From: Candidatus Helarchaeota ASGARD archaeon Hel_GB_B
GTDB taxonomy: Archaea; Asgardarchaeota; Lokiarchaeia; Helarchaeales; HEL-GB-B
Assembly (NCBI GenBank): GCA_005191425.1
Contig: SUPR01000012.1
Location: 1 to 32,000, forward strand
Reading direction: 5' to 3'
Length of the DNA: 32,000 nt
Made by a program: the position numbers and the translations under genes. Shown here one piece after another: positions 4,129 through 13,745 of the stretch. Under the pieces are notes generated by a model. It did no database searches and was not told where the DNA came from. It worked only from the letters and a program-made list of their open reading frames with translations. Every line of letters begins with the position of its first letter. The first letter of the stretch is position 1.

Positions 4129-5004
4129 TTAAAATTTCTCAATTAATTCTTTCATTTTTACAGCATGAAAATTTAATCCTAGCTCAGCTGGAGGAATTCC
4201 TTGTGCTAATGCAATTAATTCAGTTAAATATAATACCGGAATTTTATAGTTAGTACCAAATTTTGAGTTAACTTTACGTTGATTCCCGTCTAATTGCATA
4301 TAACATGCTGGACAAATTACACAAATTAAATCAGCTTTTACCCTATCAATTTGTTCTAATTTATCTTTAAGTAAAATTAATTGAGAATCTTCATCAATTC
4401 CGCTTATTGCAGACCCACAGCAAGTATGTTTATTTAAGTACTCAACGCTTGTAGCACCTAGAGCTTCGACCACTCTATCTAGAGAAACAGGACGAATTGG
4501 GTCGTCAAAATCAACAATAGAGCTAGGTCTACCATAATGACATCCATAAAAAGTAGCGACTCTTAACCCGGTTAATGGTTTTACCACCGTTTCTTTTAAT
4601 TTTTCAGGTGTAATTATTTTATAAACATATTCCAGAAAATGAACGACATTTATACTACCCTTGAATTCCATATTAACTTTAGATAGAATTTTATTTACAA
4701 CATCTTTATGGTGAGGGTCATTTTTCATTTCTACATTAGCTGATTTTAATGTTTCATAACATCCATTACAGAATGTCAGTATGTCTAGGCCTTTATCTTC
4801 AGCTAAACATAAGTTATGAGCTGCAGCAGCAGTCCACGCCTCTCTACTTATTTGAAGGGTACCTGTAGGGTTAGGGCAGCAACCAAACTCAGGAATATCC
4901 TTAAACTTAATTCTTAAGTTTTCCAATACCATTCGCCCTGATTTCTCAAGGTGTGGGTATCTATTTGCAATTACACAACCAACAAATAATGCATATTCAC
5001 TCAT
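4129..5004 (-). CDS. hdrB: CoB-CoM heterodisulfide reductase subunit B
   Basis: Two CCG-type domains: FVGCVIA, GCCP, FCNGC, YGCHY, TCCGS, CPACYMQLD. ATGA overlap with hdrC. Confidence 0.95.
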   Translation of the reverse strand: MSEYALFVGCVIANRYPHLEKSGRMVLENLRIKFKDIPEFGCCPNPTGTLQISREAWTAAAAHNLCLAEDKGLDILTFCNGCYETLKSANVEMKNDPHHKDVVNKILSKVNMEFKGSINVVHFLEYVYKIITPEKLKETVVKPLTGLRVATFYGCHYGRPSSIVDFDDPIRPVSLDRVVEALGATSVEYLNKHTCCGSAISGIDEDSQLILLKDKLEQIDRVKADLICVICPACYMQLDGNQRKVNSKFGTNYKIPVLYLTELIALAQGIPPAELGLNFHAVKMKELIEKF

Positions 5005-5510
5005 TCATTGCCACCTTCTTCAGGAAGTTTCTCAATTAATTTTGGAAATCCTACTTCTTTCAAAATCGTTTGAATAACCTCCACGTTCGGAGTCATTAAA
5101 TTTTCTTTTAAACCCATTTTTGTGCGTCGTCTTGCAATTGCGGGATTATTCGGGAGATTTAAACCGGTATTAAAGACCCGCACACCTTCTTCACGGATAT
5201 TTTCTGGAATATTTCCAATAGCGACCGCCATGTGTCTCAAATCAAATAACATTTCTGAGACCAAAACGCCTTGCGGACAAACCTCAAGACATAAATGACA
5301 AGTTGTACACAACCAAATATTCTTATCGTTCAATAATTTATCTTTAAATCCAAGTAATATATCTTCAACTAATCTCCTTGGATTATAATTACTATTTACT
5401 CTAAAAGCAGGGCAAATTCCAGCACATGTCCCGCATTGATAACAATAATTAATAGTCTTTCCGATTTCTGTTTGTGACATCTCTTTTCTAAATGCAGAGC
5501 TTATCATCAT
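5001..5510 (-). CDS. hdrC: Heterodisulfide reductase subunit C (2x[4Fe-4S])
   Basis: Motifs CYQCGTCAGICP and IWLCTTCHLCLEVCPQGV; directly upstream of hdrB. Confidence 0.95.
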   Translation of the reverse strand: MMISSAFRKEMSQTEIGKTINYCYQCGTCAGICPAFRVNSNYNPRRLVEDILLGFKDKLLNDKNIWLCTTCHLCLEVCPQGVLVSEMLFDLRHMAVAIGNIPENIREEGVRVFNTGLNLPNNPAIARRRTKMGLKENLMTPNVEVIQTILKEVGFPKLIEKLPEEGGNE

Positions 5511-5965
5511 TTTTGATCACACTAAATTTTTGGATCATCTTTTTCTAATCCTCTTAATTTAAATCTATAAACTTTTCGTTAATAATATTGTATTACTTTT
5601 TTAATCTTTAAATTATAATTTTTGGATTTGTATAGAATAAATTTAGAGAATTTTTATATAAAATGAATTAAATTCGAATAGTTCATTATAAATTAAAATT
5701 CAAATAAATAAAAATATTTTTATTTAAATGAATGAACTTATGTAAAATTAAAAAACAGAATGATTTTATGATTATTTTACTATTTTAAAAGTAACTTTTA
5801 TAATTGACTTAACTATTTTTGAAATTAGAACATTTATTAAGGCTAAATATCATTAATAATAAGATTTAATTTTGATATTAATGTCAAATTTGTGGAATGA
5901 ACTTGGAACTTTTTTTAAAAAGGTAATTTAATTAAGACAAAATTAGTCAAATTTATTTTAAAAAT

Positions 5966-7435
5966 TTAAATTTGGATAAGTTTCCAGAGCGAAAACAAAT
6001 CACTAATTTGTTTAAATGTTTTACCTTTAATAAAATCAATTGGGTTCATTGAAATACCTTTTAATAATCGAATATTTTGTAATGCTTTAATAAGGCTAAT
6101 TTCACCGTTTGCATATTGGCAAAGATGCTTCAATGTACTCTGTAGAATTATATCAGATTCTTGGTGATAAGGACCGATCTTTATGTTAATAATCTTAGAG
6201 TAATTGGGTTGGCTACCATCGATAATTAAATTTAGAATACCAAGATCAGTAATTTGAAGAGAGATAATTTTGTGGAAATCTCTGATAACCGGTAATTTTT
6301 TAGGATTGTTTTGTAAATTAATAATAAAAAGGGTTTTAATAAGTTCTGCAAATCCTTCCATTGTCAATCTTTTAATTGAAAGAGTACCTGGGAAATCTTT
6401 TTTCTCATATAAACGGATTAGTACAGCTACAAGTGGTGCGATGATTTTGACAAATTCATGTAATTTAAAGATTTTTATTTGGTTAGAAGTAGCAATTTCA
6501 AACATTTCTAATTTTCCAAGTATTAAATTAACCACGACATCAACAGAATTAAATGAAATTAAAGGATCATTATTATTAATACCATTAGTGACATCAATCG
6601 CTTCTTCTAAAAATAGAATTGTAAAGGCGGTTCGATTTTTAATTTGTATACCAAATTTCTTGCTGTCCATAATTTTCAAGAAAAATTGTATTTCGGTGCG
6701 TTCTCGTAATATATGAATGGATTTTCTGAAATAGAAAAGAAAATCATTTATTCCCATTTTTATATCAGTTATAGAAGTATTAGTATGGTCATTAATAAGG
6801 TCTCGAATTAGATTTTCCATAAGGTACATTTTAACATATCTAAAAATCAGTTCAACAAAATTAGAGAAGACTTTTTGGACAATTAATTCTTCTTTTTTTA
6901 TCTTTAGTTCTTTATTTTTCAATTCGTTGGTTAATTTTGTATTTACTTCATTAAATATGGAATCTAAATTTTTAACATAATTGATACTTTTGTTGGTTTT
7001 TAATTGTTGATATGATGATTGATAGTTTCTAAATATTTTATTTTTTTCATCTGGTAAATTTCGGCTATAAAATGAGAAGTTTTCGATACCTGCTTCTTGT
7101 TCAATCAATTTTACTAATAGGGGCTGATTAAAAATTATGCTAGAAAATAATGAATCGCTTGCATTAATAAGTTCTATTGGTAAATCCTCTTCACCAAGAA
7201 TTTTCTCCTTTTTAATTAATACAATACTTAGGACTTCTCCGTATACAGCAAAAAGAATTTTAATATCATTCATTAAAATTTTATATATTCCTTGTTCATA
7301 TCTATCAAATTTGTTTACTATGTTTAAAATTGTTTTATTTATTAAATCCAGTGTATCTTCATCAAATTTTTCCAGTTCCTTACGGAAAACAAATTTTTTA
7401 CCATAATTGATAAAAATATAAACCCCTAATATCAT
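5966..7435 (-). CDS. Putative longin-like domain + helical linker + two SCP2 (sterol carrier/acyl-CoA binding)-like domains
   Basis: The N-terminal ~110 aa follow the longin pattern (MILGVYIFINYGKKFVFRK...DLI...IYKILMNDIKILFAVYGEVLSIVLI). DPLISFNSVDVVVNLILGKLEMFEIATSNQIKI (aa ~290-322) and DIILQSTLKHLCQYANGEISLIKAL (aa ~428-452) each match the SCP2 core. Judged by eye. Confidence 0.55.
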   Translation of the reverse strand: MILGVYIFINYGKKFVFRKELEKFDEDTLDLINKTILNIVNKFDRYEQGIYKILMNDIKILFAVYGEVLSIVLIKKEKILGEEDLPIELINASDSLFSSIIFNQPLLVKLIEQEAGIENFSFYSRNLPDEKNKIFRNYQSSYQQLKTNKSINYVKNLDSIFNEVNTKLTNELKNKELKIKKEELIVQKVFSNFVELIFRYVKMYLMENLIRDLINDHTNTSITDIKMGINDFLFYFRKSIHILRERTEIQFFLKIMDSKKFGIQIKNRTAFTILFLEEAIDVTNGINNNDPLISFNSVDVVVNLILGKLEMFEIATSNQIKIFKLHEFVKIIAPLVAVLIRLYEKKDFPGTLSIKRLTMEGFAELIKTLFIINLQNNPKKLPVIRDFHKIISLQITDLGILNLIIDGSQPNYSKIINIKIGPYHQESDIILQSTLKHLCQYANGEISLIKALQNIRLLKGISMNPIDFIKGKTFKQISDLFSLWKLIQI

Positions 7436-7456
7436 TGATTTACCAAATCCATTTAA

Positions 7457-9148
7457 TTATTTTAATCTAGCAATTTCTTCTTCAATTTTTTCAGGTAGTT
7501 CTTGTAAAATATTATTAATTAAGACTTGTTTTTTAATACCATATATCTTTTTTATATGAAATCTTTTTGCAATTTCCCTGATTTTAGTAGCAGTGAGCGA
7601 TTTTAGAACTTTTTCCAGTTCATTTCGCTTATCTTTCTGAGTAACTGGTATTTTATCAGATATTTTAATTGGATTTGGAACATAAATCTGTTTATCTGAG
7701 ACTATACCCTCCCATTTTTCAATATTTTTTGGTTTTTCATAAAATTGTATCCATTGTATCCCATTTTGATTGCAATAAGTTTCGATCCCATTTGCAAATC
7801 CAGGAGCAATCAATAACGCATTAATTACTGCATTCTTTTTCCGCTTTTTTTCATAATTTTTAAGATATAAAAGTTGGACTAAATAATCTTCGACATAATC
7901 TTTATCTACCTCGAGAATTGTAAATTGACCAACGGTTATTATCTCATTATCTTTAATTTTTTGCTTAAATCCGATTGCATCCCATTTGTAGTCTAAATAT
8001 TTTATATTTCTTTTAATGTTTTCAGATTTATAACCGCGAGCTTTAAGTTTTTCAATAAAGTTTTGAAAAGCTAATTTTTTATATTCATTTTCAATTTTTA
8101 AAAGATAAGTTGCATCTAAATTATAATTCTTGATATAATAAGAAGCTAATTTTGTAATTAATTCAGATGGAGTATAATTTTCGATTTCCTGGACTAGCAT
8201 AGCACATAGACCAGGAGTTGGTGGCATGATGTCAATTAAATATTTGAATGGAGCAAGTAAATATTTATAAATTTTATCTGCAACCTCAAAAAATTCATCA
8301 TCAGAAAATTCGTTTAGATATAAAATATATTCTCTAATAGTCCTCTCGACCTCAGGTACTATTAAAGGTATTTCATCAAATTTCTCTTTATCACATGTGA
8401 AAATTATGTAAATTTTTGGTGTCCCAGTCCCAATTGTTTTATCGGTTATAGCTCTTAAATAGGTACCTATAAAGGACTGCTTGGTCTTATCATCACTTAA
8501 AGTCATAAAACGCTCTAATTCGTCAAATAATAAAACTAAAAGATAATTATTTTTTCCAAGTAATTCGATAATTTCCTCTAATAAACTCAGAGCTTCGGAT
8601 TGGTGTAATTCACCATAATTTTCAGTAAATTCACCTTTTAATATCATTTTTCCTTTTAAAAATTCGTCGTGATCACCTATAAGTAAATTAATACCATCAA
8701 TTAATCGTTTATTTGCAATTGTTTTAATGCATTCCTTATTTTCCAGCAGAAATTCTCTTAACTTTTCAGCAATATTGTCTATAATTTCTTTATAAATCCT
8801 TGGAATTATAACAGCGGGCTTTTCACCCCCATATTTTGTCAACTCAATAAAAGCAATACAAGCATTTTTTACTCGACTTTGGACTAACTGAGCAGCTTGC
8901 CTTAATGTCATTGATTTACCGCTACCAAAAGTGCCAATGATCGGGCGGACAATTGAAAAATTTAGATAATAAATATTGTTGATATCTGTTTTGAACATTT
9001 CTGAAATTCTAATATTTTTTGAATTGGGTTCTATTACATGTTTTCCATCAATCATTCTATCAACAAGTATTTTTTCAAAGTTGGGAATAGGCTCGCCTCT
9101 TTTTAAAAGGTGTAAATCCCGTATTTTTTCTGTAAAAAAGTTTTTCAT
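7457..9148 (-). CDS. P-loop ATPase (AAA+/BrxD-like) with C-terminal REase-like fold and Rho-N-like helical tail
   Basis: Walker A GTFGSGKS and Walker B LLVLLFDELE. The C-terminal WDAIG...ALLIAPGF..GIETYCNQNGIQW resembles an Mrr/NucS-like fold, and LKSLTATKIREIAKRFHIKKIYGIKKQVLINNI resembles Rho-N. SD AGGAG upstream. Confidence 0.7.
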   Translation of the reverse strand: MKNFFTEKIRDLHLLKRGEPIPNFEKILVDRMIDGKHVIEPNSKNIRISEMFKTDINNIYYLNFSIVRPIIGTFGSGKSMTLRQAAQLVQSRVKNACIAFIELTKYGGEKPAVIIPRIYKEIIDNIAEKLREFLLENKECIKTIANKRLIDGINLLIGDHDEFLKGKMILKGEFTENYGELHQSEALSLLEEIIELLGKNNYLLVLLFDELERFMTLSDDKTKQSFIGTYLRAITDKTIGTGTPKIYIIFTCDKEKFDEIPLIVPEVERTIREYILYLNEFSDDEFFEVADKIYKYLLAPFKYLIDIMPPTPGLCAMLVQEIENYTPSELITKLASYYIKNYNLDATYLLKIENEYKKLAFQNFIEKLKARGYKSENIKRNIKYLDYKWDAIGFKQKIKDNEIITVGQFTILEVDKDYVEDYLVQLLYLKNYEKKRKKNAVINALLIAPGFANGIETYCNQNGIQWIQFYEKPKNIEKWEGIVSDKQIYVPNPIKISDKIPVTQKDKRNELEKVLKSLTATKIREIAKRFHIKKIYGIKKQVLINNILQELPEKIEEEIARLK

Positions 9149-9161
9149 TATATTTACTCCT

Positions 9162-9857
9162 TTATCTTTCCCTTAATAATAACCAAGATTTTGTTCTAGA
9201 ATGCTGAATACCAATCAATCTTGGATATTTCTCTTTTAATTTTAAAAAAAGTTCGTCAAAATGATTTGGTGGTATAATATAATCTCTAATTATTTTATCT
9301 CTAAATTTTTCAAACCAGACCAATCCTGTAGGGTCTTTTTCTGTAGACATATATTCAGTTTGTATGATTTCTTTAAATTCTTCTAATGAGATTTTCTTTA
9401 TAGTATATGTATATTTCCGATTTCTATTTAAGACGCCACACTTTACTAAAATATTTATATTATTCTTAAGTTCATCAAATGGGATGTTGACTTTAAATTC
9501 AACAAATTGCTTATTTATTTCCTCTATAGTAGGAATTTTTATTTTACTTAGTGCTTTTAATAATAATTCTCTAAAAGTATAATTAATATACCGTTTATTT
9601 AATATAGCCTTGGAAAGTATTCTATCATAATCTTGAAGTGCCTCTTTTCCTAATTTCGTAATCTTATAATTATTATCTAAAAATCCCAGTTTAATACATT
9701 TATTTATTAGATCTTTTCTTTTTCTTTTTCCCATTACCTTTTTCTCTTTTCTACCAGAGATAAAAGAAGATTCTTTCCCAATCGATTCCATTAGATCTAT
9801 TAATGATTCGGAATTTTCTGCTTTTTCTAATATTGTCCTAATTTTTTCATAGGTCAC
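9162..9857 (-). CDS. Putative multi-winged-helix DNA-binding protein
   Basis: Two wHTH-like recognition-helix/wing segments (KDLINKCIKLGFLDNNYKITKLGKEAL; DELKNNINILVKCGVLNR) plus a third helical domain. GTG start; ends 13 nt before the ATPase. Confidence 0.55.
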   Translation of the reverse strand: MTYEKIRTILEKAENSESLIDLMESIGKESSFISGRKEKKVMGKRKRKDLINKCIKLGFLDNNYKITKLGKEALQDYDRILSKAILNKRYINYTFRELLLKALSKIKIPTIEEINKQFVEFKVNIPFDELKNNINILVKCGVLNRNRKYTYTIKKISLEEFKEIIQTEYMSTEKDPTGLVWFEKFRDKIIRDYIIPPNHFDELFLKLKEKYPRLIGIQHSRTKSWLLLRER

Positions 9858-10004
9858 TATTAAACACTTTTAGTTCTAATTAATTATAAATATTAGATAT
9901 TAAGTAATTAATTTAAACTTTTTAAATTTAAAATAAAAGAGTTTCATATTATAAATTAGAAGTTCAACAAAAATATAAATTAAATCAATATTAAGTGATA
10001 TATC

Positions 10005-10799
10005 TTGAAAATAATAGTATGTATAAAGCAAGTCCCTGAAACTAATAATATAGACTTTAATCCAAGTGATCTTACTATAAATCGATCACATGTAAACGGG
10101 ATTATTAATCCATTCGATTTAAATGCAATTGAAGAGGCTGTTAGAATAAAAGAAAAATTTGATGACGTTACAATTTCGGTTATTTCGATGGGGCCACCAT
10201 CTTTTGAAAAGACTTTAAAGGAAGCTCTTACTTATGGACTAGATTCAGCGTATCTTATCTCAGATAAATTATTTGCGGGTTCCGATACTTTTTCTACTGC
10301 ATACATCCTTGCAGAATCTATTAAGGCAATTGGTGATTTTGATTTAATTTTGTGCGGAAAGCATGCAATTGATGGGGAAACTGGACAGGTGGGTTCCGAA
10401 ATAGCAGAAAATTTAAAAATACCTCAAGCTACAAATGTTAAAAAGATTGAATTCCATGAAAATAAAAAAATTATTAAAGTAGAAAGTGATACTGAAAATG
10501 GATATAGGGTCTTAGAAGTAAAATTACCTGCATTAATTACTGTTAATAAAGAAATTAATGTCCCTAGAATTCCATCTTTTAAAGACGCAAGAAAAGCCTT
10601 GAAAATTCCAATAATTAAATGGGATCTTGGGAAATTAAAAAATATCGACAAAACGAAAATTGGACTGACAGGGTCTCCGACTAAAGTAGTTAATATTGAG
10701 AAATTTCAAAAGAAAAAAGATACAAAATTTATTTCAGGAACACCTAATGAAATTGTGAATGAATTATACCAAATTCTAAAAGATAAGCACGTAGTATAA
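10005..10799 (+). CDS. etfB: Electron transfer flavoprotein beta subunit
   Basis: Motifs MKIIVCIKQVP, INPFDLNAIEEA, MGPP, FAGSDT, CGKHAIDGETGQVG, EINVPRIP, GLTGSPT. TTG start with GTGA SD. Confidence 0.95.
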   Translation: MKIIVCIKQVPETNNIDFNPSDLTINRSHVNGIINPFDLNAIEEAVRIKEKFDDVTISVISMGPPSFEKTLKEALTYGLDSAYLISDKLFAGSDTFSTAYILAESIKAIGDFDLILCGKHAIDGETGQVGSEIAENLKIPQATNVKKIEFHENKKIIKVESDTENGYRVLEVKLPALITVNKEINVPRIPSFKDARKALKIPIIKWDLGKLKNIDKTKIGLTGSPTKVVNIEKFQKKKDTKFISGTPNEIVNELYQILKDKHVV

Positions 10800-10827
10800 G
10801 ATTATAATATCAATAAAGATTATTTTA

Positions 10828-11838
10828 ATGGATGATTTAACCATGAATTTAGAAGATTATAAAGGTATCTGGATATTTGTTGAATATACCGAAGATAAAA
10901 TCTCTGAACTAACTTTTGAATTATTAGGAATTGGACGTAGATTGGCAGATAAATTAAAAGTTGAATTATCATCTGTTATTTTAGGCCATAATATTAAATG
11001 CGACTTAAATTTACTATTTCACTATGGATCAGATAAGATTTATAAATTAGACAACAAGCACTTAGAAGTTTATAGGACTATACCATTTACCGATGCACTT
11101 GAATATCTTGTAAATAAATATAGACCAGAGGTTCTAATTCTTCCAGCCACAAGTATTGGGAAAGACCTGGCACCAAGACTTGCGTGCCGATTAGAAACTG
11201 GATTGTCAGCTGATTGTACTGAATTAGATATTGGGCCAGATGGAAATTTAATACAAAAAAAACCGTCCTATAGTGAAAATGATTATATAACAATTTTGAC
11301 GCCAAATCATCGACCCCAAATGATAACAATTCGTAGTAAAATTTTTACTCCTCAAACTCCAGACCCAAATAGAACAGGTAAGATAATTGAAGAACATCTT
11401 GAATTAAATGAATCAGAAAATTGGACTAAAATTTTAGAAATTATAGAAGAAGACCAAGAAGATGCAAATATACAAGAAGCTGAAATAATTGTATCAGTAG
11501 GAAGAGGAATTAAAAAACCTGAAAATTTAGGTCTAATTAAAAAATTAAGCTCTTGTATTAATGCCTCAATTGGGGCTTCAAGGTCAATTGTTGATTTGGG
11601 TTGGATCTCACATTACCATCAAGTAGGGTTGACGGGAAAAACGGTAAAACCAAAAATTTATATTGCATGCGGAATATCCGGTGCAGTACACCATATAATT
11701 GGTATGAAATCTTCAGATTTTATTATTGCAATTAATAAAGATCCTGAAGCCCCAATTTTCCAAGTCGCTGATATTGGGATTATAGGTGATTTATTTGAAA
11801 TCATCCCTATTCTAATTGATAAATTAACTATAAAATAA
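10828..11838 (+). CDS. etfA: Electron transfer flavoprotein alpha subunit
   Basis: Motifs GLSADCT, RPQMITIR, AEIIVSVGRG, GASRSIVDLGW, QVGLTGKTV, GISGAVHHIIGM, AINKDPEAPIF. Confidence 0.96.
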   Translation: MDDLTMNLEDYKGIWIFVEYTEDKISELTFELLGIGRRLADKLKVELSSVILGHNIKCDLNLLFHYGSDKIYKLDNKHLEVYRTIPFTDALEYLVNKYRPEVLILPATSIGKDLAPRLACRLETGLSADCTELDIGPDGNLIQKKPSYSENDYITILTPNHRPQMITIRSKIFTPQTPDPNRTGKIIEEHLELNESENWTKILEIIEEDQEDANIQEAEIIVSVGRGIKKPENLGLIKKLSSCINASIGASRSIVDLGWISHYHQVGLTGKTVKPKIYIACGISGAVHHIIGMKSSDFIIAINKDPEAPIFQVADIGIIGDLFEIIPILIDKLTIK

Positions 11839-11972: not shown

Positions 11973-13745
11973 TTGATAAGTTTTTTTATAATTCCATTTA
12001 TTTGTTCAATTATTACATTTATAATTGGACATCAAATACTCAATAAAAATTCAAAATCATATTTAAATCGTTTCTACTTTATTTTTTCAGTCATTGTATC
12101 ATTTTGGGGTTTTAATGAGGGACTTTTATATATTGCACCAACATATACTATTGCATATGTTTGTTTAAAATTAGATTCCATTAGTTTTTTTGTGCTCCCC
12201 CTCCAATTAAGGTTCATTCTTTTATATACTCGTAATAAAAAGATCCTTAAAAATAAATTAATTTTTTCTATAATATATGCTCCAGTAATTGTTTTTTTTA
12301 TTATTAATTTGACCACACCATTAATCTCAGAAGGTCTTCAAATGGAAATTTGGGGATGGTCAAGTATAATTCCTGATAACCCGATTATTTACTATATTAC
12401 ATTAATTTGGGCACTATCAATTGAAGTTTGCATAATTTATATTTCGACCAAGTATTATATAAATAATATTGAGACTGTTAGAAAAAAACAGATGTTTCTC
12501 ATCCAATATGGATTTACAACTCCGATAATTATAAGTTTATGTTTACAAATAATATTTAATTTATTGAACATATCAATACCAAATTTATTAATAATTGGTG
12601 TATTAATCGGAGATATTTCAATTGCATTTGCAATTATTAAATATAAATTATTCTATAAACCAAAATATAAACTAGTTTTTGACAAACTTATCGAAGGAAT
12701 TGCTTTTTTTGAAATTCAATTTGATAAATTTAATAGACCTATTGACCTAATTTTTTTGGATGTTAACAAATCCTTTGAATCCTTTACAGGTTTAAATAAA
12801 AGAGATATACTTTTTAATAAATTTTCGGATGTTATACTGAAAAATAAATTTGTAAAGTTTTCATGGTTAAATGATATTTTTAATTATGCATTGGAATTTG
12901 AAAATGTCAGAATTGAGCGATTTTCGGATTTTGATGAACGTTGGTTTTTTATTTCGCTTTATATTTTTGGTAAAAAGTTTGCTGTAATTTTAATTGAAGA
13001 TATTACCCAGAAGAAAGTACTTTTAAATGAACTTTACAGGCAATATAACGAACTACAAGAGATTAATCAATCTAAAGATGAAATATATTCAGAAATTGTC
13101 CATGAATTTAGAACTCCATTAACCGTTATTAAAGGATTTACTGAATTAAACTTAAAAAATAATAGGCTGGAAAAATTCTTAATTAATGATTTAAAAATTA
13201 TTCAAAAGAATATATTAAGATTAGAGGAATCAGTAAATGAAATATTAGAATATTCTAAAGCATTAGAAGTGGAAATGAAACTTGATAAAAAAGCTTGCGA
13301 TATACGAGATATTGTAAAGGAAATAATAGACAGAATTTCACCTCTAATAAAAGAAAAAGATCTTAAAATTATCAAAAGTTTTGATGATAATACATTATTA
13401 AAAGTTGATAAATATCAAATAGAAAAAGTAATTAAAAATTTCTTGACCAACGCAATTAAATTTTCTAATCCAAATGGAAATATACAAATAAAATCTGTTG
13501 TTAATGATAATATTTGGCGGTTTTCAGTAAAAGATGAAGGAATTGGAATAAGTCAAGATGATATTTCAAAATTATTTACCCGATTCATTATGCTAGATAA
13601 TTCCAAATCAATAAATAAAAAAGGGATTGGAATTGGTTTGGCATTATCAAAAAGAATTATTGAAATGCACCAGGGCAAAATTTGGGTTGAATCTGAAGGG
13701 ATTAACAAAGGCTCAGAATTTATTTTCGAAATTCCACTTGAATAA
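11973..13745 (+). CDS. Membrane sensor histidine kinase (N-terminal 7TM, PAS, HisKA, HATPase_c)
   Basis: About seven hydrophobic helices, PAS-like FLDVNKSFESFTGL, H-box VHEFRTPL, N-box NFLTNAIKF, G boxes DEGIG and GIGIGLALSK. Confidence 0.93.
   Translation: MISFFIIPFICSIITFIIGHQILNKNSKSYLNRFYFIFSVIVSFWGFNEGLLYIAPTYTIAYVCLKLDSISFFVLPLQLRFILLYTRNKKILKNKLIFSIIYAPVIVFFIINLTTPLISEGLQMEIWGWSSIIPDNPIIYYITLIWALSIEVCIIYISTKYYINNIETVRKKQMFLIQYGFTTPIIISLCLQIIFNLLNISIPNLLIIGVLIGDISIAFAIIKYKLFYKPKYKLVFDKLIEGIAFFEIQFDKFNRPIDLIFLDVNKSFESFTGLNKRDILFNKFSDVILKNKFVKFSWLNDIFNYALEFENVRIERFSDFDERWFFISLYIFGKKFAVILIEDITQKKVLLNELYRQYNELQEINQSKDEIYSEIVHEFRTPLTVIKGFTELNLKNNRLEKFLINDLKIIQKNILRLEESVNEILEYSKALEVEMKLDKKACDIRDIVKEIIDRISPLIKEKDLKIIKSFDDNTLLKVDKYQIEKVIKNFLTNAIKFSNPNGNIQIKSVVNDNIWRFSVKDEGIGISQDDISKLFTRFIMLDNSKSINKKGIGIGLALSKRIIEMHQGKIWVESEGINKGSEFIFEIPLE

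Follow-up and report, generated by a model that had tools for sequence, protein, structure and literature searches.

A conserved Helarchaeales operon joins a P-loop ATPase with a degenerate nuclease fold to a longin-SCP2 protein

Related systems and conservation of the operon

The BrxD and BrxC proteins of BREX (PF10923) and the AAA_16, ATPase_2 and STAND-ORC assemblage (signal transduction ATPases with numerous domains, STAND; origin recognition complex, ORC) are P-loop ATPases with Walker A and Walker B motifs and a DNA-associated context. MalT-like STAND regulators combine a P-loop NTPase switch with parts for ligand sensing and for DNA binding. In metabolic enzymes (MFE-2, SCPx, alkylsulfatases), SCP2 domains often act as escorts for acyl-CoA or alkyl substrates. 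Here, we describe an operon of three genes, A, B and C, on a 32,000-nucleotide stretch of DNA (positions 1 to 32,000 of contig SUPR01000012.1, assembly GCA_005191425.1; hereafter the window) from the Helarchaeota archaeon Hel_GB_B, whose metagenome-assembled genome comprises 3.5 Mb, is 94% complete and includes the window as its contig C26. The operon appears to be a module of the conflict-system type, with an NTPase, a winged helix-turn-helix (wHTH) protein and a nuclease fold, that has been domesticated and has acquired an unprecedented longin-SCP2 partner.

A recent preprint predicts immunity systems that join ParA-type NTPases, wHTH and profilin-longin-like domains (bioRxiv 10.64898/2026.10.19.760177). 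The operon likewise combines a P-loop NTPase with a wHTH and a longin-like domain. In contrast to the systems of the preprint, however, the ATPase B is of the ASCE type (BrxD/STAND-like) rather than a TRAFAC/SIMIBI GTPase or a ParA protein, and the longin domain is fused not to a wHTH but to SCP2, a domain that the preprint does not mention. We found no description of the A-B family or of a longin-SCP2 fusion in the literature; a search for Asgard archaea returned one paper on START-domain lipid-transfer proteins, which does not cover C. No system model of PADLOC-DB 2.0 was matched, with only two weak single-domain matches (one each for A and B), and neither Pfam nor NCBIfam places the operon in a known system, in keeping with the view of the initial annotation, made from the sequence alone, that the genes belong to no recognised pathway.

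Genes A (9162–9857), B (7457–9148) and C (5966–7435) all lie on the minus strand, A and B separated by exactly 13 nt (AGGAGTAAATATA) and B and C by 21 nt. An AGGAG Shine-Dalgarno-like motif (9157–9161, minus strand) is located within the A-B gap, 8 nt before the ATG of B. On its upstream side the operon is bordered by a spacer of 147 nt (9858–10004; 12.2% GC), which it shares with divergent genes for the beta and alpha subunits of electron-transfer flavoprotein (ETF), and on its downstream side, past C, by a spacer of 455 nt (5511–5965; 15.4% GC), compared to a GC content of 26.6% for the window. The tight, co-oriented arrangement, both gap lengths, the AGGAG motif before the ATPase gene and the AT-rich spacers had all been noted in the initial annotation and all of them were confirmed. 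A TATA-like TTTATA (9885–9890, minus strand) occurs 33 nt before the start of A, while no TATA-like motif is present within 80 nt upstream of B or of C; judged by this motif, the upstream spacer is a putative promoter. The spacer past C is a possible termination zone and bears T5 runs at 5960–5964 and 5917–5921 (coding strand). Oligo-T runs were considered as a terminator signal and discarded as uninformative, as T5 runs are frequent inside genes too.

Full-length orthologues of B and of C were found in the same five of 400 Asgard genomes, comprising both sampled members of one Helarchaeales family (f1) and all three of another (f2), and in none of the other 395. The order and orientation of A, B and C are identical in all five genomes as well as in three further metagenomic contigs; this conserved synteny rules out chance adjacency of the three genes. 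Each genome carries a single copy. The orthologue families comprise 21–22 clusters at 90% identity, all 49–78% identical to the proteins of the window; orthologues with an organism name are from Helarchaeota and have adjacent locus tags. An exhaustive profile search with B among 1.84 billion representative proteins gave 12 matches at E values up to 0.001. Conservation of the neighborhood across Asgard genomes, proposed initially as a check, was thus too broad an expectation: the trio is conserved within Helarchaeales, in two families of this one order only. Within Helarchaeales, the refuting condition set out initially, a lack of co-occurrence of the three genes in other genomes, does not apply.

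Sequence identity to the same-genus (f1) genome and to the f2 genomes amounts to 74% and 64–68% for B, 53% and 45–47% for A, and 60% and 51–52% for C, while neighboring HdrC-like and HdrB-like proteins are 76–78% and 50–51% identical, respectively. Because B retains 64–68% identity to f2 compared to 50–51% for the adjacent redox enzymes, B is more constrained at long range than these enzymes. The identities of the window proteins track taxonomy, which points to an operon that is under purifying selection and has been vertically inherited.

The ATPase B and the winged-helix protein A

Gene B encodes a protein of 563 amino acids (aa) with a P-loop ATPase region, a degenerate PD-(D/E)xK domain and a Rho_N/SAP-like tail. 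Walker A (GTFGSGKS, residues 72–79; 8912–8935, minus strand) is invariant in 22 orthologues and kept in distant relatives, and in Walker B (VLLFDELE, residues 205–212; 8513–8536, minus strand) D209 and E210 are invariant in all 31 family members. Both hallmarks of a P-loop ATPase, GxxxxGK[ST] and hhhhDE, are therefore intact in B, and the initial assignment as an ATPase is clear. B scores marginally above the cut-off of PF10923 BrxC_BrxD (22.4 compared to 22.2 bits) with only short stretches aligned, matches the PADLOC BrxD model with an E value of 1.9e-4 and, along with other members of its family, shows weaker Pfam matches to AAA_16, AAA_22, ATPase_2, NACHT, nSTAND1, nSTAND_NTPase5 and ORC-CDC6-like, of which the STAND and AAA_16 ones are sub-threshold.

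Membership in BREX was rejected, as the BREX gene context is absent and the NCBIfam BREX_BrxD equivalog scores 19.5 bits on B, far below its cut-off of 350. Indeed, no PglX, PglZ, BrxA, BrxB or BrxL was found near the operon in Pfam scans of the larger open reading frames (ORFs) of the window, or likewise in related loci. B differs from BREX ATPases in that a PD-(D/E)xK fold and a Rho_N/SAP tail form its C-terminal part and in that its partners are a multi-wHTH and a longin-SCP2 protein. A sequence search of the B profile against solved structures gave nothing relevant (best match, thermosome, E 0.17), and an AlphaFold model of B based on the 22-sequence alignment has a mean predicted local distance difference test score (pLDDT) of 57, with values below 50 over residues 1–109 and 212–346.

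The only well-modeled part of B is a restriction-endonuclease-like domain with the PD-(D/E)xK fold (residues ~350–472; 7733–8101, minus strand; pLDDT 75–91). In VIA-align, residues 356–472 matched the C-terminal domain of NucS (2vld_B) with Z 12.0 (root-mean-square deviation [rmsd] 2.9 Å over 106 aa), followed by AF1548 (1y88; Z 11.7), Card1 (Z 10.1) and Can2 (Z 9.8), and NucS/EndoMS was likewise found with Foldseek. B shares with these proteins the fold and the first Asp (D390), but the position of their ExK motif reads Q408-F-T410 in B, with Q408 and T410 invariant in 22 of 22 Helarchaeal orthologues. In addition, B lacks the N-terminal domain of NucS and has no CARF domain; instead, the nuclease fold is fused behind the ATPase. 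With QxT in place of ExK throughout the Helarchaeal sequences, nuclease catalysis has probably been lost, and an active restriction-like nuclease was dismissed as a candidate on account of the missing ExK motif. Behind this domain, B ends in a helical Rho_N/SAP-like tail (residues ~510–556; 7481–7621, minus strand), which reaches 21.3 bits with Pfam Rho_N (cut-off 24.9), shows a weak Fan1_SAP match and resembles the N-terminal domain of Rho (1a62; Z 6.5, rmsd 1.8 Å over 47 aa); a precomputed PF07498 assignment is present on four B orthologues.

Gene A (231 aa) starts with GTG, and this annotated start is supported by the N-termini of its orthologues, which are conserved from residue 2 onward. 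The initial call of A as a winged-helix protein is borne out by sub-threshold Pfam matches only, to wHTH-PRTase_assc (PF24409; 23.1 bits compared to a cut-off of 27) and to HTH_45, and by a PADLOC match to PRTase_III-A (E 6.3e-5) that spans only the C-terminal wHTH-like region of that model. A was considered as a PF24409 member and not accepted as such, as it scores below the cut-off and the phosphoribosyltransferase (PRTase) partner is absent; Pfam scans of the larger window ORFs revealed no gene for such an enzyme in the neighborhood. The searchable literature contained no mention of "wHTH-PRTase".

The A-B pair is older than the operon of Helarchaeales, as judged by distant relatives of B (B'). 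In the loci L010 and L011 and in the 2.9-kb contig of relative P0046, a gene of 208–218 aa ends 2–5 nt before the start of B', while in Lokiarchaeial genome G250 (locus L031:564-15896, contig G250:C119) a partner gene of 169 aa ends 11 nt before a B' of 535 aa. A profile of A orthologues matched the genes directly upstream of B' with E values of 2e-13, 1.6e-7 and 3e-6, and of 1.9e-7 in G250, all from databases of about 100 ORFs, and A-like upstream partner genes were also recovered from 5.8 billion sequences. The C-terminal ~75 aa of A (about residues 157–231) are the part common to the partner genes of all distant B relatives. In L010 and L011, the gene in third position (197 and 346 aa, respectively) matches neither the C profile nor any Pfam family. 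Because each detectable B' gene is immediately preceded by an A-like gene while the genes downstream are unrelated to C, we conclude that A-B is the ancestral pair and C a Helarchaeales addition.

Among the distant relatives of B, the Asp corresponding to D390 is conserved throughout, followed by G-E-x-K in P0049, P0055 and the G250 protein and by E-x-T in P0046, P0047 and P0054. Relatives P0056 (52.8 bits) and P0052 (26 bits) lie clearly above the PF10923 cut-off; P0055 exceeds the NACHT cut-off (28.8 compared to 26.7 bits) and P0052 falls just below it (26.5 bits), while more distant members of the family match BrxC_BrxD, ATPase_2, NACHT, ORC-CDC6-like and nSTAND1. The DNA-binding tail seems to have been swapped between lineages of this family, as the relatives P0054 and G181 end differently: P0054, a metagenomic protein of 723 aa, is considerably extended at its C-terminus, where a histone fold is weakly matched (PF00125, E 0.015), and the G181 protein ends in an HhH domain (HHH_5). 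In the sister family f4, relatives are sporadic; an ATPase-domain relative occurs in two of 135 genomes (G250 and G181), and a third match, in G020, covers a Rho_N-like tail only. The A'-B' pair of G250 has a defence-island-like setting, being flanked by a 1255-aa type IIG-like restriction-modification gene (N6_Mtase/Eco57I/TaqI_C) and a 1083-aa STAND gene (NB-ARC-TPR-CSD), with a gene for an NAD-dependent DNA ligase (403 aa) further on.

This setting raises the question whether the Helarchaeal operon, too, serves anti-virus or anti-plasmid defence, with A and B sensing or coating invader DNA, the dead nuclease acting as a DNA-binding or sensor module, and C as an effector or membrane-targeting part that would work via lipid extraction, membrane perturbation or assembly of longin multimers. 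The BrxC_BrxD scores of B, P0052 and P0056, the weak PADLOC matches to BrxD and to the wHTH of PRTase_III-A, the neighbors of the G250 pair, the sporadic distribution of the relatives and the predicted systems of NTPases and wHTHs with profilin-longin-like elaborations (bioRxiv 10.64898/2026.10.19.760177) are all in line with this idea. The Helarchaeal copy, however, is single, syntenic and tracks taxonomy; its B protein is better conserved than the adjacent redox enzymes, unlike arms-race genes, and has lost the catalytic Glu and Lys in 22 of 22 sequences. Moreover, Pfam scans of the larger ORFs uncovered no restriction, toxin, CRISPR or integrase genes in the window, and mobile-element collections gave no match when plasmids were searched with P0049 and phages with B (tblastn). 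The DNA-sensing defence module envisaged at the outset thus fits the distant A-B relatives, one of which has restriction-modification and STAND neighbors and some of which keep an intact D...ExK, but for the Helarchaeal operon we consider a defence function unlikely and a regulatory one more likely.

The longin-SCP2 protein C and its neighborhood

C (489 aa; predicted model with pLDDT 71) has no Pfam and no PADLOC match in the window. Its model starts with a longin-fold domain (residues 1–120; 7076–7435, minus strand) in the order β-β-α-β-β-β-α-α. Residues 1–121 resemble synbindin (2zmv; Z 8.7), the VAMP7 longin domain (4afi; Z 8.4), Sec22 (3egd; Z 8.3) and sedlin (2j3w; Z 8.0), and thus the longin and roadblock platforms of NTPase regulators (TRAPP synbindin/sedlin, VAMP7/Sec22, MglB, LAMTOR); these Z values are middling, and roadblock, MglB and LAMTOR folds match nearly as well (Z 7–8). 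Protein-language-model neighbors of the domain are Asgard longin clusters at 0.87–0.89, a lead only. A helical linker rich in K, N and E follows (residues ~121–180; 6896–7075, minus strand; low confidence, pLDDT 33–50), leading to a middle α/β domain (residues ~181–347; 6395–6895, minus strand; pLDDT 58–89) and to a C-terminal domain with the SCP2 fold (residues ~348–489 plus the stop codon; 5966–6394, minus strand).

The SCP2 domain is assigned from its fold and from structure matches of residues 343–489 to UbiJ-SCP2 (6h6n; Z 9.9, rmsd 3.2 Å over 113 aa), AF1534 (3bn8; Z 9.1) and human SCP2 (8af2; Z 8.9); in addition, PF02036 (SCP2) is precomputed on six of 21 C orthologues. Foldseek searches with C returned AP sigma and LAMTOR for the N-terminal domain, and SCP2 and alkylsulfatase C-domains for the C-terminal one. 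In the predicted models, the longin-SCP2 build of C is therefore confirmed. The middle domain, a second SCP2 domain according to the initial annotation, shows an SCP2-like order of helices and strands; SCP2-labeled atlas clusters span the region with TM scores of 0.24–0.31 by query and 0.24–0.45 by matched row, and there is no significant similarity between the middle and C-terminal domains (hhalign probability 0.4). Here, the likeness is one of topology. The C-terminal domain of C shares its fold with UbiJ, SCP2/SCPx, MFE-2, the C-domain of alkylsulfatases and AF1534. Unlike in those proteins, the domain is not joined to an enzyme; it is preceded by the longin domain and a second, divergent α/β domain, and it is operon-linked to DNA-binding and ATPase genes.

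Stand-alone paralogues of the two α/β domains of C are encoded by adjacent small genes in three other Helarchaeales genomes, G006 (L018:942-2968), G002 (L019:934-3286) and G001 (L020:1465-2477), in which one gene covers C-profile positions ~230–340 and the other ~355–484. In two of the three loci, the pair lies beside a gene with a metallo-beta-lactamase fold, an arrangement that recalls the alkylsulfatases (metallo-beta-lactamase plus SCP2), the top Foldseek matches of C. The stand-alone paralogues of the middle domain have no Pfam match, and a paralogue pair was not found in the genome of the window. C may have originated by fusion of such a pair to a longin domain.

The operon has a stable, if rearranged, metabolic neighborhood, unlike that of a variable island. 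HdrC/B-like genes are located within 0.5–5 kb of it in every locus with enough context, and a 430-aa gene resembling acyl-CoA dehydrogenase (ACAD) directly adjoins C in six other loci. In f2, genes of a NiFe-hydrogenase/Hdr-like type, a Fer4_8 and CCG pair, a UDP-glucose dehydrogenase gene and a double-zinc-ribbon gene precede A-B-C, which is followed by the convergent ACAD-like gene, an Arf-like GTPase gene and FixCX-like genes; in the same-genus genome, A-B-C, ACAD-like, Fer4_8 and CCG genes follow each other on a single strand. In the window, the divergent ETF beta/alpha genes (10005–11838, plus strand) lie upstream and Fer4_8 (HdrC-like) and CCG (HdrB-like) genes (4129–5510, minus strand) downstream, while the usual position of the ACAD-like gene is taken by the 455-nt spacer with its 15% GC. 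An ACAD gene occurs at 1590–2750; together with the HdrC/HdrB-like and ETF genes it resembles the Fe-S oxidoreductase/ETF electron-transfer set that has been proposed for β-oxidation in Helarchaeota (PMC6478937). After the ETF genes, the window encodes a 590-aa histidine kinase (11973–13745, plus strand) with an N-terminal seven-transmembrane region (HisKA_7TM, HisKA, HATPase_c); a 590-aa ORF with no Pfam match on record lies near the trio in locus L008 (15023–16795).

Such surroundings would also suit a C protein that is functionally separate, acting as an acyl or lipid carrier for the adjacent β-oxidation, ETF and Hdr-like enzymes and co-transcribed with an unrelated A-B pair through gene packing. 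SCP2 enzymes of the acyl/alkyl type are indeed among the fold matches of C, an ACAD-like gene adjoins C in the six loci mentioned, and the closest paralogues of two of its domains are the stand-alone pairs beside a metallo-beta-lactamase-fold gene. Yet the 21-nt B-C junction and the gene order are kept in every locus although the surroundings have been rearranged, the ACAD-like gene has moved away in the genome of the window, and among the 400 Asgard genomes C never occurs without A-B, nor the A-B pair of the Helarchaeales operon without C. Together with the missing TATA-like motif before C and a predicted B-C contact that, while weak, is well above controls (see below), this makes a separate role of C distinctly improbable.

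Small GTPases of the Arf family are encoded two genes downstream of C in f2 loci (L008:16859-17380 and L009:14633-15148) and two genes downstream of a distant B relative (L011:7214-7804); neither the window nor the same-genus genome shows this adjacency, which could be due to chance, given the many small GTPases of Asgard archaea, or could be linked to the longin domain. The latter would suit an operon that encodes a chromosome-handling device or DNA-membrane tether, in which A and B form an ATP-dependent clamp or organizer and C provides a link to membrane lipids via SCP2, its longin domain possibly interacting with an Asgard small GTPase. Such a tether would fit the combination of DNA-binding parts (wHTH, SAP-like tail) with a lipid-binding fold and a longin platform, and would be compatible with the high conservation and single copy of the operon and with weak ScpB and EarA matches on the A-like protein of L010. 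However, C lacks a segment that could anchor it in a membrane, the operon comes without an SMC, kleisin or ParA-type partner and is missing from two same-order genomes that are 94% complete, and GTPase adjacency, where it occurs at all, is likely by chance. We therefore regard a tether, too, as a distinctly remote prospect.

A predicted B-C complex and a possible regulatory role

The initial annotation had also suggested co-folding of the proteins. When residues 1–500 of B were modeled together with C from custom alignments, interaction prediction scores from aligned errors (ipSAE) of 0.51, 0.42 and 0.56 were obtained (median 0.51), while three controls all scored 0.00; the partners showed pLDDT values of at least 65, at least 89% of contacts were shared between runs, and the tool returned a verdict of "weak support". 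Of 80 solved complexes, 58 reach the ipSAE mark, as do two of 110 mismatched pairs, but only seven of those 80 complexes lie at an ipSAE of 0.60 or below, together with both of the passing mismatches. Because operon linkage had made binding of B and C likely beforehand, we take the prediction as mild support for such an interaction.

Starting from the gene order, conservation, restricted distribution, motifs and folds described above, we infer complex formation, a ligand, DNA binding and a regulatory output. Tentatively, and with less than even confidence, we favor the view that the operon, Helarchaeales-specific and vertically inherited, encodes an ATPase module that was domesticated, is dead as a nuclease and includes a subunit for ligand binding. 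In the lineage leading to Helarchaeales, the catalytic Glu and Lys of the nuclease fold would have been replaced, the tail would have turned Rho_N/SAP-like and the third gene, encoding the soluble protein C, would have been gained. A and B would sit on DNA, with B acting as an ATP-driven switch that has no nuclease role, comparable to STAND- or ORC-type ATPases that oligomerize or alter DNA binding upon nucleotide exchange. C would dock on B and report a hydrophobic ligand (an acyl chain, acyl-CoA or lipid) in its SCP2 pocket, its longin domain providing a dimerization or docking platform. The output would be control of DNA transactions or of transcription, probably regulatory and possibly tied to the nearby ACAD, ETF and Hdr-like electron-transfer genes.

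Such a device would follow the logic of MalT-type STAND regulators, with the difference that each of the three functions would reside on a polypeptide of its own and that the sensor would be an SCP2 lipid pocket instead of TPR/SUPR repeats; the analogy is one of design, as STAND membership of B is indicated by sub-threshold Pfam matches only. The proximity of ACAD, ETF and Hdr-like genes and the anaerobic alkane/acyl-CoA oxidation proposed for Helarchaeales (PMC6478937) are circumstantial evidence that fits ligand-responsive regulation. Of the two functions initially offered, a DNA-sensing defence or chromosome-handling module and a lipid-responsive regulatory machine, the latter thus fares better than defence, still as an interpretation. 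The full scenario, in which an immune-type ATPase-nuclease was domesticated in a Helarchaeales ancestor and became a nuclease-dead, DNA-bound ATP switch gated by a longin-SCP2 subunit with a lipid or acyl ligand, is rather unlikely to be true.

Several observations weigh against a domesticated regulatory module. The evidence for the loss of ExK in B comes from a sequence alignment and a modeled fold, and catalytic residues have shifted to other positions in some PD-(D/E)xK enzymes. The class of the ATPase (STAND, ORC or BrxD-like) is drawn from marginal or sub-threshold Pfam scores, with a poorly modeled core, the second (middle) SCP2 domain of C is plausible only, and the complex prediction of B and C counts as weak support. 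Both genomes of a third Helarchaeales family (f3), each 94% complete, lack the operon, which is therefore not essential to Helarchaeales. The acyl-CoA link is at the level of the neighborhood only and is broken in the genome of the window itself, whose ACAD-like gene is found on a different contig, C161 (L037, G000:C161:8988-10271; 66% identical to the same-genus copy). Finally, the wHTH, the BrxD-like ATPase, the nuclease fold and the longin-like domain are all of kinds that have been tied to immunity (bioRxiv 10.64898/2026.10.19.760177).

Irrespective of its function, which is wholly inferred, the operon joins DNA-binding and ATPase parts to a protein of a lipid-binding type in a conserved unit without a described counterpart, as had been surmised initially, and both its architecture and its apparent exaptation are unusual and testable. 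Asgard archaea possess eukaryote-like parts, such as longin/roadblock proteins, small GTPases and lipid-transfer folds, whose archaeal use is mostly unknown; here, a longin domain forms one protein with SCP2-type domains, and its fixed genetic partners are a DNA-binding protein and an ATPase instead of a GTPase. With 12 matches among 1.84 billion representative proteins and an occurrence in two families of one uncultured order, the family is very small, and its importance would therefore be conceptual and lineage-specific, not general. The operon offers a clean, datable case of a defence-type ATPase-nuclease that lost catalysis and yet stayed under strong constraint, which looks like exaptation. 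If the full scenario outlined above is true, the operon would represent the first case in which a longin domain works together with an SCP2 lipid pocket and an ATPase of the ASCE type (BrxD/STAND-like), and DNA transactions of an Asgard archaeon would be directly coupled, in a manner previously unknown, to lipid or hydrocarbon-derived acyl status.

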